The notes: generated by a model not told the origin, from the sequence alone. DNA of 64,000 nt from Eledone cirrhosa (GCA_964016885.1 OZ024741.1:382726001-382790000), one strand, 5' to 3'; shown: positions 398 to 55,591, counted from the stretch's first letter. Program-made: numbers and translations.

Positions 398-1400
398 AAC
401 GAAGGAAATGTGGTAAGGAACCAGGTGGACCATAACGCACCAAAGTACTCAATACTTGAGGTAGTAGAGTGGGTAATAGGAACCAGTAAGACCCCGACAG
501 CTGAGCTCAAGCCGTTTCGACGGTATAGAGATTGTTTTAGCAAGAAGCTAACGGCATTCTATAACATATATGCGACTATAACGTCAAGATGGGAAAAGTA
601 GTTAACGAAAGATTTAGGAAAAGTAACTCAAACTCATCTCAAAAGAGAATCAGGATATAAATTCATCCACAGAATTTAGTAAAATCCAGGGAAAAATCTA
701 TAGACCTTTAACTCATGATAAAATAAAGTTTGAAACACTTATCCTTCAATTTGGAATAACATCAAATGCTCCGTATAGTCTTAAAAGACTATTTCATGAA
801 AACTTTCAGTGGAGATGGTCACGGTTGGAGTTCATTCATCAGCAGAGCTCAACAGAAACCAGGGCTCTCACAGTAATATAATCCGAAAAAGGGAGTTCTA
901 AAACTGGCTAGTTTGCCTTCATGTGTATTTATGAAAAAGCACATGAGGAAAAAACGGGGCTAGTGACGTCAGGATGGAAGTGAATGTTTATTTACAAGAA
1001 ATAGCAGTCAAATACATTCTGAATAAAAACTCTACAAAAGAGTTCAGCAAAATAGCAATAATTATCACAGTTTTTATGAAAAAAACCGGGATTAGTCACA
1101 GATAGTTTAAGCACTCTAGGAAAAGAATCCGAGTATAAATATAAATGAGAGGTATAGAGATTGTTTTAGCAAGAAGCTAACGGCATTCTATAACATATAT
1201 GCGACTATAACGTCAAGATGGGAAAAGTAGTTAACGAAAGATTTAGGAAAAATAACTCAAACTCATCTCAAAAGAGAATCAGGATATAAATTCATCCACA
1301 GAATTTAGTAAAATCCAGGGAAAAATCTATAGACCTTTAACTCATGATAAAATAAAGTTTGAAACACTTATCCTTCAATTTGGAATAACATATCCTTCAA
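398..1400 (-). mobile_element. Non-autonomous PLE-like/retrozyme element(s) in a (TA)n tract with ~630 bp direct repeat
   Basis: 522-760 repeats directly at 1151-1390. 398-523 recurs at 46463-46590 and inverted at 32705-32842. 522-750 recurs at 32440-32665. Flanked by TA runs and contains an HHR. Confidence 0.7.
768..848 (-). ncRNA. Type I hammerhead ribozyme
   Basis: Minus strand reads GCUCUG-CUGAUGA-AUGAAC..GUUUUCAU-GAAA-UAGUCUU UU AAGACUA-UA-CGGAGC. All three stems pair and the core is canonical. Confidence 0.85.
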
Positions 1401-1739
1401 TTTGGAATAATATATATATATATATTTATGTGTGTGTGTGTGTGTGGTGGTTGTCTACTCTTTGTAGAACTTAGCCGCAACTTGCACCTATATTTGCTAA
1501 TTCTTAGCTTGAGATCTTAATCGACTTTTGATCCCTGAAAGGCGTTTGAAAATCTGACTGTAATGACGTGTGTGTGTGTGTGTGTGTGTGTGTGTGTGTG
1601 TGTGTGCATGTGTGTGTGTGTGTGTGTGTGTGTGTGCGCGTGTGTGTGTGTGTGTGTGTGTGTGTGTGTGTGTGTGTGTGTGTGTGTGTGTGTGTGTGTG
1701 TGTGTGTGTGTGACTGTGTGTGTGTTTTGCAATTTTTGG

Positions 1740-2400
1740 ATGTGAAATCGTAAGTTGAAACAGATATTGTTATATTTGGGGAGGGTCATATTGTTATAAT
1801 ATTGCCAGAAATATTAATAGAACACATCACTGTTTGCCTTGGATTAGTTTTTGAATCTGTATATTTTATTTCTCTATAGTTTACTTAGATGGCATTCAAT
1901 GTTTATCATATATATATACACAAGTACCATAACAACAAACACATATAAACACACATTATTGAACAAAGATAGAATACAAAAACAAAAACACATACACTCA
2001 AACACGAATACACACACCAAACATAAAAAACACACGCATGCGCAATCAGAGACAGAGACAAGAATAGATGAATAAATAAATAAAATAAAAATGGCATAGG
2101 CATTACAATACAACGGGAGGAAATATAATATTTCCACTGATGATGTCACAGATGTGTGACGAAAGAATTTTGACATATATATTTATATCTATATTTGTAA
2201 CCGTTGGTCAATCAATGATAAACATTGATTGCCAGATAAATTAAGTATTGAGATATGAAAGATACTGAAGCGAAAATCAACACACACCAAACAGTGTGTT
2301 CTGTTATTATTTCTGGCAATATCATAAGAATATGATCCTCCCAAGTATAACAATATTTATTTCGACACACGATTTCATATAAAACAACTGCAAAACAAAT
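1740..2400. mobile_element. Non-autonomous PLE-like element with partial inverted duplication
   Basis: 1740-1850 is an imperfect inverted copy of 2280-2400. Family members at 31995-32190, 44515-44910 and 61070-61540. Bounded by microsatellites. Confidence 0.65.
2134..2175 (+). ncRNA. Minimal hammerhead-like motif (degenerate stems I/III)
   Basis: CUGAUGA-U-GUCACA gaug UGUGAC-GAAA. Homologs at 44715-44756 (-) and 61303-61342 (+) have GUUGC(A)/(U)GCAAC, a compensatory stem II change. Confidence 0.6.
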
Positions 2401-51858: not shown

Positions 51859-54800
51859 CAAAATGTTTATTGTAAACATGCGGAATATTTTCGAATATTC
51901 TATGTCTATATTCACATATATATCGCTATTTCAGAGCATTTATTCCAATTTCTAATTTCTGCCGGACCGGCAACCGCTCTTTCAAACCAGTTCCTGTACA
52001 CAGCTAAGTATTCTATAAGTCTCTAGCTGTGTCATTCTCGATAAAAGCACTGGATATGTAGTCCTGATGATTTCTAACGAGAATGAAACGCGTAGATTAC
52101 TTCCCTTGCTTTTATCGAGAATCTAATTGTAATACGTGACGTATTCTATTCTATAGCGATTAGGTCTTCAAAATGTTTATTGTAAACATGCGGAATATTT
52201 TCGAATATTCTATGTCTATATTCACATATATATCGCTATTTCAGAGCATTTATTCCAATTTCTAATTTCTGCCGGACCGGCAACCGCTCTTTCAAACCAG
52301 TTCCTGTACACAGCTAAGTATTCTATAAGTCTCTAGCTGTGTCATTCTCGATAAAAGCACTGGATATGTAGTCCTGATGATTTCTAACGAGAATGAAACG
52401 CGTAGATTACTTCCCTTGCTTTTATCGAGAATCTAATTGTAATACGTGACGTATTCTATTCTATAGCGATTAGGTCTTCAAAATGTTTATTGTAAACATG
52501 CGGAATATTTTCGAATATTCTATGTCTATATTCACATATATATCGCTATTTCAGAGCATTTATTCCAATTTCTAATTTCTGCCGGACCGGCAACCGCTCT
52601 TTCAAACCAGTTCCTGTACACAGCTAAGTATTCTATAAGTCTCTAGCTGTGTCATTCTCGATAAAAGCACTGGATATGTAGTCCTGATGATTTCTAACGA
52701 GAATGAAACGCGTAGATTACTTCCCTTGCTTTTATCGAGAATCTAATTGTAATACGTGACGTATTCTATTCTATAGCGATTAGGTCTTCAAAATGTTTAT
52801 TGTAAACATGCGGAATATTTTCGAATATTCTATGTCTATATTCACATATATATCGCTATTTCAGAGCATTTATTCCAATTTCTAATTTCTGCCGGACCGG
52901 CAACCGCTCTTTCAAACCAGTTCCTGTACACAGCTAAGTATTCTATAAGTCTCTAGCTGTGTCATTCTCGATAAAAGCACTGGATATGTAGTCCTGATGA
53001 TTTCTAACGAGAATGAAACGCGTAGATTACTTCCCTTGCTTTTATCGAGAATCTAATTGTAATACGTGACGTATTCTATTCTATAGCGATTAGGTCTTCA
53101 AAATGTTTATTGTAAACATGCGGAATATTTTCGAATATTCTATGTCTATATTCACATATATATCGCTATTTCAGAGCATTTATTCCAATTTCTAATTTCT
53201 GCCGGACCGGCAACCGCTCTTTCAAACCAGTTCCTGTACACAGCTAAGTATTCTATAAGTCTCTAGCTGTGTCATTCTCGATAAAAGCACTGGATATGTA
53301 GTCCTGATGATTTCTAACGAGAATGAAACGCGTAGATTACTTCCCTTGCTTTTATCGAGAATCTAATTGTAATACGTGACGTATTCTATTCTATAGCGAT
53401 TAGGTCTTCAAAATGTTTATTGTAAACATGCGGAATATTTTCGAATATTCTATGTCTATATTCACATATATATCGCTATTTCAGAGCATTTATTCCAATT
53501 TCTAATTTCTGCCGGACCGGCAACCGCTCTTTCAAACCAGTTCCTGTACACAGCTAAGTATTCTATAAGTCTCTAGCTGTGTCATTCTCGATAAAAGCAC
53601 TGGATATGTAGTCCTGATGATTTCTAACGAGAATGAAACGCGTAGATTACTTCCCTTGCTTTTATCGAGAATCTAATTGTAATACGTGACGTATTCTATT
53701 CTATAGCGATTAGGTCTTCAAAATGTTTATTGTAAACATGCGGAATATTTTCGAATATTCTATGTCTATATTCACATATATATCGCTATTTCAGAGCATT
53801 TATTCCAATTTCTAATTTCTGCCGGACCGGCAACCGCTCTTTCAAACCAGTTCCTGTACACAGCTAAGTATTCTATAAGTCTCTAGCTGTGTCATTCTCG
53901 ATAAAAGCACTGGATATGTAGTCCTGATGATTTCTAACGAGAATGAAACGCGTAGATTACTTCCCTTGCTTTTATCGAGAATCTAATTGTAATACGTGAC
54001 GTATTCTATTCTATAGCGATTAGGTCTTCAAAATGTTTATTGTAAACATGCGGAATATTTTCGAATATTCTATGTCTATATTCACATATATATCGCTATT
54101 TCAGAGCATTTATTCCAATTTCTAATTTCTGCCGGACCGGCAACCGCTCTTTCAAACCAGTTCCTGTACACAGCTAAGTATTCTATAAGTCTCTAGCTGT
54201 GTCATTCTCGATAAAAGCACTGGATATGTAGTCCTGATGATTTCTAACGAGAATGAAACGCGTAGATTACTTCCCTTGCTTTTATCGAGAATCTAATTGT
54301 AATACGTGACGTATTCTATTCTATAGCGATTAGGTCTTCAAAATGTTTATTGTAAACATGCGGAATATTTTCGAATATTCTATGTCTATATTCACATATA
54401 TATCGCTATTTCAGAGCATTTATTCCAATTTCTAATTTCTGCCGGACCGGCAACCGCTCTTTCAAACCAGTTCCTGTACACAGCTAAGTATTCTATAAGT
54501 CTCTAGCTGTGTCATTCTCGATAAAAGCACTGGATATGTAGTCCTGATGATTTCTAACGAGAATGAAACGCGTAGATTACTTCCCTTGCTTTTATCGAGA
54601 ATCTAATTGTAATACGTGACGTATTCTATTCTATAGCGATTAGGTCTTCAAAATGTTTATTGTAAACATGCGGAATATTTTCGAATATTCTATGTCTATA
54701 TTCACATATATATCGCTATTTCAGAGCATTTATTCCAATTTCTAATTTCTGCCGGACCGGCAACCGCTCTTTCAAACCAGTTCCTGTACACAGCTAAGTA

Positions 54801-55357
54801 TTCTATAAGTCTCTAGCTGTGTCATTCTCGATAAAAGCACTGGATATGTAGTCCTGATGATTTCTAACGAGAATGAAACGCGTAGATTACTTCCCTTGCT
54901 TTTATCGAGAATCTAATTGTAATACGTGACGTATTCTATTCTATAGCGATTAGGTCTTCAAAATGTTTATTGTAAACATGCGGAATATTTTCGAATATTC
55001 TATGTCTATATTCACATATATATCGCTATTTCAGAGCATTTATTCCAATTTCTAATTTCTGCCGGACCGGCAACCGCTCTTTCAAACCAGTTCCTGTACA
55101 CAGCTAAGTATTCTATAAGTCTCTAGCTGTGTCATTCTCGATAAAAGCACTGGATATGTAGTCCTGATGATTTCTAACGAGAATGAAACGCGTAGATTAC
55201 TTCCCTTGCTTTTATCGAGAATCTAATTGTAATACGTGACGTATTCTATTCTATAGCGATTAGGTCTTCAAAATGTTTATTGTAAACATGCGGAATATTT
55301 TCGAATATTCTGTCTATATTCACATATATATCGCTATTTCAGAGCATTTATTCCAAT
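51859..55357 (+). repeat. 310 bp retrozyme-like tandem array, right arm, inverted (11 full copies plus partial)
   Basis: aaatgtttat at 51861 + 310n up to 55271. Copies appear identical. Confidence 0.95.
52058..52100 (+). ncRNA. Minimal type I hammerhead ribozyme (repeated every 310 bp to 55158-55200; 15 copies in total)
   Basis: GUAGUC-CUGAUGA-u-UUCU aacg AGAA-u-GAAA-CGCG-UA-GAUUAC, flanked by a perfect 16 bp inverted repeat attctcgataaaagca/tgcttttatcgagaat. Confidence 0.92.
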
Positions 55358-55591
55358 ATATATATATATATATATATATATATATATATATATATATATA
55401 GAGAGAGAGAGAGAGAGAGAGAGAGAGAGAGAGAGAGAGAGAGATTTTGAGTATATGTCGGTTGTATACCAACACCTCAGTATGCAGGCTGGAGCACTCA
55501 ATGGAGTGATCAGGTTGGTTTGGTAACTGCGGAGTAATGTAAAATAATGTAAAATAAAAAGTCAAATGTTTAAAATTTAGCTTCGTTTATT

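Follow-up and report, generated by a model that had tools for sequence, protein, structure and literature searches.

Among Penelope-like elements (PLEs), the Hydra clade is defined by an RW(K/R) motif, a DKT motif, a CxCx5C linker, plus a GIY-YIG domain located C-terminally (PMC8557442; this and the other cited papers are used here through the parts of them that were available). At issue here is how Penelope-like reverse transcriptases (RTs), which form telomerase's sister group, select an RNA and the sites at which they prime. The purified protein of Poseidon-Ac binds and requires RNA just 3' of the hammerhead ribozyme, and its internal priming uses two sites, one on either side of the tail; both strands of the target are cut, and the protein is a predicted dimer (PMC11167929). 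Non-long-terminal-repeat (non-LTR) retrozymes are thought to use PLE proteins (PMC7229834; PMC7761336; bioRxiv 10.64898/2026.07.22.740005), and for animal retrozymes a review, in the part available, reports no conserved motif that indicates a partner (PMC7761336). Here, we describe a predicted RNA hairpin in a 64,000-nucleotide stretch of DNA from Eledone cirrhosa (GCA_964016885.1 OZ024741.1:382726001-382790000; the window), which is AT-rich animal DNA with abundant (TA)n microsatellites and decayed retroelements. We favor, with a probability of roughly 0.6, the reading that this hairpin is the site at which the RT-endonuclease of Hydra-clade PLEs binds its RNA, lying between both insertion ends.

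A preliminary description of the window had pointed to a short motif as a common cis element with a palindromic core, located downstream of hammerheads and near a TA junction. We found 18 matches to this 11-base motif compared to 1.49 expected, and 18 were reached in none of 100 shuffles. Seventeen of them fall into eight families (A to H, with family letters being labels of this analysis) that have no BLAST similarity to one another at E<1e-6, while one is a chance match. Every site listed previously was present, displaced by 0 to 3 nt: on the plus strand at 5339-5349, 31121-31131, 31923-31933, 32787-32797, 44380-44390, and 47548 plus the four other 610-bp monomers, and on the minus strand at 443-453, 3454-3464, 46508-46518, and 55492-55502. 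Sites beyond that list lie at 5172(-), 5650(+), and 25033(-), along with the chance match at 36352-36362(-), which is antisense within a non-Hydra PLE open reading frame (ORF).

The proximity to a TA junction held up well, as a (TA)n or (TC)n run begins 36 to 47 nt past the end of 11 of the 18 matches (7 of 9 groups; background 4.7%, p ~2e-8), and on the reverse side of the motif only 2 of 18 have such a run in the same range. The association with hammerheads was borne out in five of the eight families, at distances of 40 nt in C, 53 to 57 nt in B, 95 nt in H, 106 nt in F (variant core), and 169 nt in E; A, D, and G (the 610-bp monomer) yielded no hammerhead. With a range of 32 to 170 nt, a fixed distance between motif and hammerhead was rejected, and it is relative to the insertion ends, instead of the hammerhead, that the motif position is fixed. 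A copy with the palindromic GAGYRCTC core exists in five of the eight families, but the palindrome is broken in C, D, and two of the three A copies, and a palindromic DNA site was rejected because the palindrome is not conserved across families. What survives of the common cis element is its sharing by coding elements and non-coding parasites, with RT recognition as its likeliest role, but not the linear palindrome.

In the RNA, the motif makes up the 3' arm of a bulged hairpin predicted to have the form RCUC-stem...stem-UW-GAGY-NCY. No alignment of the families was obtained with MAFFT, and pairs were counted by script in place of a covariance model. An RCTC 5' arm able to pair with GAGY lies at most 100 nt upstream in each of the eight families defined by sequence (chance rates multiply to 7e-5; with upper-stem pairs included, Fisher gives 6e-7). 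This arm is absent at the chance ORF match and in the copy at 5172, which is truncated at the motif. Six families have GAGU and a first basal pair of A-U, and two have GAGC and G-C in that position. Within families, 28 of 40 pairs were Watson-Crick, compared to a mean of 19.4 when arms were swapped between families (P=0.0017). The common layout consists of an AT-rich leader (81% AT in the 10 nt upstream), RCUC, an upper stem of 1 to 5 bp, a very variable loop, a 2-nt 3' bulge whose first nucleotide is U in 15 of 16 cases, GAGY, and NCY.

Local minimum-energy folds contained the basal stem in 10 of 10 cases, with loops of 7 to 90 nt and z between -0.15 and -5.4; in the fold of family J, two of the four basal pairs formed. 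Eight further examples of the hairpin came from a fold scan (L, M, N, O, P, and a second G unit) or were identified by eye (I and J). The fold-only scan is unspecific alone, with 95 array-inflated matches compared to 33.5 expected, and the fold-scan families count as evidence solely via their insertion ends. A second hairpin between the motif and the long end, spotted by eye, is weak (z<=-2 in 3 of 12 folds).

The hairpin is located between two classes of insertion ends at (TA)n. On its 3' side are long ends, which lie 36 to 47 nt past the motif in 7 of 9 motif groups and 33 to 42 nt past it in I, J, and L. On its 5' side are short ends, where one copy stops and RCTC starts 5 to 15 nt further on in the copy that continues, a rule followed at 11 of 25 testable junctions (background 0.06, p 7e-8). 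The 25 junctions derive from an end scan of 84 TA junctions with filtering of microsatellite flanks, in which 30 had a homologous copy and 5 were dropped where the partner ends as well (398, 5400, 24121, 27306, and 32842). Rule-following short ends occur in C, F, G, H (twice), I, J, L, M, and Q, in addition to one antisense case (junction 32667) that is likely chance; I, J, L, M, and Q lack the linear motif of the preliminary description. The short end of B also fits, with TA 6 nt before the arm. Where a copy continues, the template is TA-like at the ends, which fits priming by the (TA)n target. In the inverted pairs of C, J, L, and M, the hairpin and spacer are on one arm, and the inverted arm halts before the hairpin, resembling the classic one-sided tail of PLEs (PMC8557442).

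The 5' ends of long copies also map to the hairpin. In three of three informative inverted insertions, those in which one copy is long enough to extend to the preceding unit, the long-copy 5' end is on the 3' arm, at -4 (C), +4 (M), and +9 (H) from the G of GAG. Coding H, with a 4173-nt unit, and non-coding M, with a 593-nt unit, have an identical layout of one unit plus a terminal repeat that starts from the motif, and in each a short partner, placed head-to-head, stops ahead of the hairpin.

Judged by their predicted proteins, the coding elements linked to the hairpin are Hydra-clade PLEs, not Naiads. Four Hydra-type PLE ORF remnants are found at 4657-5055, 28530-29020, 39057-41437, and 56890-59561, with one PLE of non-Hydra type at 36234-37319. 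In H and in 39057-41437 the endonuclease (EN) follows the RT, making the GIY-YIG domain C-terminal (Pfam GIY-YIG E=0.0085, below the curated cut-off). H has an N-terminal RWK at 59459(-), and C has RWR at 4980(-). DKT instead of DKG is present at 59197(-) in H and at 39249(+) in the ORF head-to-head with the F partner, while the CxCx5C linker is at 57315(-) in H and at 28923(-). The EN of H has no CCHH and a single cysteine between GIY and YIG. H also has no insertion-in-fingers domain, as its RT3-RT4 stretch measures 52 residues, the same as in a by-eye translation of Hydra-1_Amil. Canonical hammerheads accompany H (55643-55597) and C (5572-5610), and the elements end in (TA)n, in the case of H via (TC)n. 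A six-frame motif scan for Naiad features gave no CxC match, and DKA and RT3 matches only in non-coding repeats. The "Naiads" that the motif had been said to unite with their parasites are replaced by Hydra-clade PLEs as the coding partners, no Naiad RT motif being found in the six frames. A protein search returned 68 matches, few of them named and some from Elysia, and was of no help with the clade.

The PLE at 36234-38124 belongs to another clade, having a C-terminal EN with CxxC, RVT_1 at E=5e-9, and a degenerate hammerhead near 37945. It has no hairpin: GAGA lies 37 nt before its end with no matching stem.

Cross-species evidence comes from six published Hydra consensi read by eye (PMC8557442). 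The hairpin or a variant of it is present in five of the six, from coral, sea cucumber, and copepod. Three are exact, including the 2-nt bulge, in Hydra-2_Amil and Hydra-2_Ajap at the 3' end and in Hydra-1_Ajap at the 5' start; the 3' end of Hydra-1_Ajap is TA-like, as expected of a short end. Two are variants (Hydra-1_Amil and Hydra-1_Crog). Six 8-mers searched in the available supplement of the same paper gave 22 matches, missing any that span line breaks, of which 3 were in Hydra elements (all terminal), 10 in Naiads, and 9 in Chlamys. At Naiad ends, the motif was at none of the 48 boundaries (of 54) read by eye over 140 to 200 nt on each side.

The arm, both classes of end, and the junction positions are read from the sequence itself. 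In the mechanism we propose for them, the RT-endonuclease, possibly as a dimer, would grip the base of the hairpin and nick the (TA)n target. Complementary DNA (cDNA) would then be primed at UA-rich RNA, either 5 to 15 nt 5' of the hairpin, giving the short end, or about 33 to 47 nt 3' of it, giving the long end. The hairpin and its 3' spacer would thereby form the Penelope "tail" of the Hydra clade, and priming at both sites on opposite target strands would yield head-to-head pairs with a tail on one side. At the 3' arm with its bound protein, an RT coming from downstream would be prone to stalling and jumping, much like at a telomerase template boundary. We propose that the non-coding families are mobilized in trans because the hairpin is kept in them. 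By analogy, the hairpin may be the counterpart in Hydra elements of the RNA binding region of Poseidon-Ac. More tentatively, and with odds somewhat against it, the hairpin could be an RNA anchor conserved across the clade, in echinoderms and crustaceans as well as corals, with a dimeric RT-endonuclease starting one cDNA on either side of it, and could double as a telomerase-like boundary. If true, the tail and the head-to-head pairs would both follow from a single step, and the anchor would supply the missing tag by which animal retrozymes can be matched with a partner enzyme.

A number of observations weigh against binding of the RT-endonuclease at the hairpin. All statistics are from a single 64-kb window, and the distance windows were set post hoc. 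For the ends, 14 of the 25 testable junctions are off-rule, including those of a SINE-like (short interspersed element-like) family, antisense ends, and long ends. The short end of E lies 41 nt before the arm, and the long ends of M, N, and O lie 81 to 105 nt past the motif. The bracketed stretch of about 65 to 110 nt exceeds the canonical tail of 30 to 40 nt. Informative junctions for the 5' ends number only three, and with five passages through the hairpin in the G arrays, any boundary is leaky. For the fold, the best-fitting arm was taken in families with more than one (A, F, G, and H), the upper stem is poor in D, E, and H, and in wider folds other pairings win in 3 of 14 motif copies (5650, 46508, and 47548). 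The ratio of G-U to A-C pairs is 4:2, and the strand is not fixed by it. The hairpin is wanting in the 310-bp arrays and in families K, S, T, W, and X, and Q has the 5' arm alone and V the 3' arm alone. Outside the window, the consensus of Hydra-1_Obim gave no clear hairpin match by eye, and a full hairpin occurs once in the published Naiad_Mmer, about 470 nt away from the 3' end, which is likely chance.

The main rival for the 5' ends is a promoter or initiator (Inr), with transcription starting at the motif, the upstream TA-rich stretch serving as a TATA box, and long copies ending where the RNA does. The three long-copy 5' ends on the motif and the AT-rich 10 nt upstream (81%) are what this account would predict, and a pair of TATA and Inr-like elements has been proposed in the pseudo-LTR (pLTR) of rotifer Penelope, in a paper whose available part also argues for antisense templates (PMC3846280). 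We nevertheless consider it unlikely, as the spacing from the TA-rich site to GAG varies from about 20 to 105 nt between families, unlike the fixed geometry of TATA and Inr. A promoter also does not need the covarying distal arm, and it leaves the 3' ends on both sides of the hairpin unaccounted for. Improbable to a similar degree is a DNA-level site for the GIY-YIG endonuclease, recognized either in the DNA duplex or, during resolution, in a hairpin formed by the cDNA. The EN of Drosophila virilis Penelope required tail sequence for cutting of plasmid DNA (as reported in PMC11167929), and the 4 G-U compared to 2 A-C pairs leave the strand unsettled. Against a DNA site, the palindrome is not conserved and is missing from I, L, M, and N, arm spacings of 15 to 97 nt disfavor a duplex site, and the ends join the (TA)n target rather than being cuts inside the motif.

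We give still less credence to common descent, in which the parasites arose from Hydra pLTRs and retained a functionless 11-mer. Retrozymes have been reported as pLTR-derived (bioRxiv 10.64898/2026.07.22.740005), and several copies here are decayed, but both arms, the bulge, and the end spacing persist between families whose flanks are unalignable, as well as in three other phyla. Equally hard to credit is an RNA-processing element, whether as a fold that assists the hammerhead or circle ligation or as a site whose cleavage produces the 5' ends. Such an element would fit the position 32 to 170 nt 3' of the hammerhead, where one was found, and the mapping of 5' ends to the motif. It is opposed by the scatter of these ends across 13 nt, by the highly variable distance to the hammerhead, by hairpins in families with no detectable hammerhead, and by the lack of an Rfam match.

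The most complete element linked to the hairpin is H, a decayed full-length Hydra-clade PLE at 55445-59663(-). Its parts run in the order tail, 5' untranslated region (UTR), RT-EN ORF (~59561-56890), 3' UTR, hammerhead, hairpin, and tail, all on the minus strand. The type I hammerhead (55597-55643(-)) is cleaved 95 nt before the motif, and the hairpin spans 55492-55535(-), with the distal ACUC arm at 55535 (alternative, 55507), the motif at 55492-55502, and a long end 47 nt on. The inverted partner of H (59663-60482(+)) has its (TA)n end 7 to 11 nt before the 5' arm position. The long copy of C (4657-5183(-)) extends from the motif at 5172-5182 via tail and 5' UTR into the Hydra-type N-terminal ORF that carries RWR. 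A plus-strand C copy (5261-5390) has hammerhead cleavage at 5299, the hairpin at 5327-5349, and a long end 38 nt past the motif. In the C inverted pair (5499-5701), the minus copy stops 5 nt short of the arm, at 5504, and the plus copy contains a hammerhead (5572-5610), the hairpin (5638-5660), and a long end at 5700. F (44196-44431(+)) consists of a hammerhead-like fold with a variant core, the hairpin at 44337-44390, and a long end 41 nt past the motif, and its inverted partner (38502-39054(-)) has a (TA)n end 9 nt before the arm. F likely represents the 3' end belonging to the Hydra-type ORF at 39057-41437, a link drawn from the head-to-head junction 39054/39057. The hammerhead-like fold of F (44196-44274; 38502-39054) has the core CCGUCGA in both copies, compared to CUGANGA, and family A opens with the same heptamer.

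For the remaining motif families, the A hairpin is found at 443-470(-), with a long end 44 nt past the motif, at 32770-32797(+), and at 46508-46535(-). The B hairpin (GCUC/GAGC) is found at 3454-3478(-), with a long end 36 nt past the motif, and at 31107-31131(+); the short B copy at 26815-26897(-), which includes a hammerhead, is the one with the TA end 6 nt before the arm. The D hairpin (25033-25056(-)) is within a short insertion and has a long end 41 nt past the motif. E (31855-31933(+)) has the basal arm, a poor upper stem, and a hammerhead with a long stem II at 31654-31754. G comprises five 610-bp monomers (47451-50505(+)), each with a 105-nt hairpin, the first at 47454-47558. This array consists of five whole units, both of its ends being at TATA just before the long hairpin. 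Each G monomer also contains a second short hairpin of like form (first, 47958-47987), to which no insertion end maps. No hammerhead in G or M passed the descriptors, with a degenerate candidate in G only.

Among the families added by fold or by eye, M is non-coding (45547-46433). Its minus long copy (46239-45547) comprises the 593-nt unit and the terminal repeat from the motif, with the hairpin at 45706-45643, and its plus partner (46240-46433) ends 6 nt before the arm. In the L inverted pair (33001-33259), the minus copy ends 7 nt before the arm, and the plus copy has the hairpin at 33133-33217 and a long end 42 nt on. The I hairpin (GAGC-CCUC; 27340-27388(-)) is 32 nt past a variant hammerhead (27460-27420) and has a long end 33 nt on; a short I copy at 22732 ends 6 nt before the arm. 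J has a variant hairpin with G.G at its base (35592-35621(+)), a long end 39 nt on, and an inverted partner at 34902 that ends 11 nt before the arm. The N hairpin (42358-42400(-)) has a long end 81 nt on and a second copy within 61584-62064. The O hairpin (30292-30314(-)) is from the fold scan. The P hairpin is at 1109-1134(-), and a second P copy has, by eye, a TA end near 32431, about 8 nt before the arm position. In V (2505-2575(-)), GAGU lies 38 nt before the TA end and is followed by a perfect 13-bp hairpin (z -4.8) with no clean 5' arm.

Across the window, our hammerhead descriptor gave 14 distinct matches, with inner array copies excluded, compared to 0 in five shuffles. Rfam gave no match at the gathering score; at E<=1 it returned microsatellite-driven matches, a weak hammerhead at 2693-2764, and an antisense match (E=0.31) over a TA run near 44380. 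The hammerheads at 31654-31754, 842-774(-), 35825-35752(-), and 35158-35093(-) have very long stem II loops (38 to 80 nt) and score below the Rfam gathering score. The most abundant hammerhead family in the window is that of the 310-bp arrays, none of which is matched by the motif. Hairpin-less families, namely, these arrays (50557-55357), S (33846(-)), and the 4032 family (4300-4320(-)), share a short TA run followed by GCTATTT. Several of their copies end at the TA run, and this could be an equivalent tag for another PLE clade. Unrelated to the motif is a SINE-like family, about 190 bp in length and represented by at least six copies (13411-13563, 15330-15507, 22357-22539, 25236-25437, 32200-32406, and 62816-63011). 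The window also holds decayed ORFs like those of long interspersed elements (LINEs), with endonuclease and RT-like pieces by reading, at 17091-21376 and 23372-24061. An ORF with a DKS motif at the window end (63129-63773) is possibly another PLE; Pfam gave no match for it.

No description of the hairpin was found in the literature searched, with most subscription papers outside that search. As a hairpin of 25 to 100 nt with ends mapped on both sides, it provides exact mutations for an existing in vitro assay and a descriptor for sorting non-coding repeats by partner clade. It is also a possible minimal tag for programmed (TA)n insertion.

Compared to known systems, the elements described here share with the Hydra clade (Craig et al. 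2021, PMC8557442) the C-terminal GIY-YIG, RWK, DKT, the CxCx5C linker, and a hammerhead in the pLTR, as well as (TA)n targets, inverted 5'-truncated partners, and a one-sided tail. They differ in that the available part of that paper describes no RNA element but the hammerhead and in that H measures 4.2 kb, as opposed to the usual <3 kb (PMC8557442). With Poseidon-Ac (Frangieh et al. 2024, PMC11167929), they would share two-site internal priming 3' of the hammerhead that brackets the tail, a protein-binding RNA region in the same place (predicted here), and an AT-rich target. However, Poseidon-Ac belongs to another clade, the part of the paper available defines no conserved binding motif, the region is coding there and non-coding here, and the bracketed stretch here is about 65 to 110 nt (PMC11167929). 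Metazoan non-LTR retrozymes (Cervera and de la Pena 2020, PMC7229834; PMC7761336; bioRxiv 10.64898/2026.07.22.740005) are likewise short non-coding hammerhead repeats, tandem or dispersed. In contrast to them, many non-coding families here share a hairpin with Hydra elements, and the best retrozyme-like array of the window (310 bp) is without it. The template-boundary helix of telomerase (PMC4993307) is also a short helix whose basal sequence is conserved; it is bound by a related RT and limits copying, both of which are predicted here. The boundary proposed here differs in that it draws on three junctions and would be leaky, and we claim no sequence homology. LINEs and their SINEs have a common 3' stem-loop, a small RNA fold that lets the parasites borrow the RT and is retained by them for that use. 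Those stem-loops are at the RNA 3' end with one priming site, whereas the hairpin here is internal, with ends on both sides.

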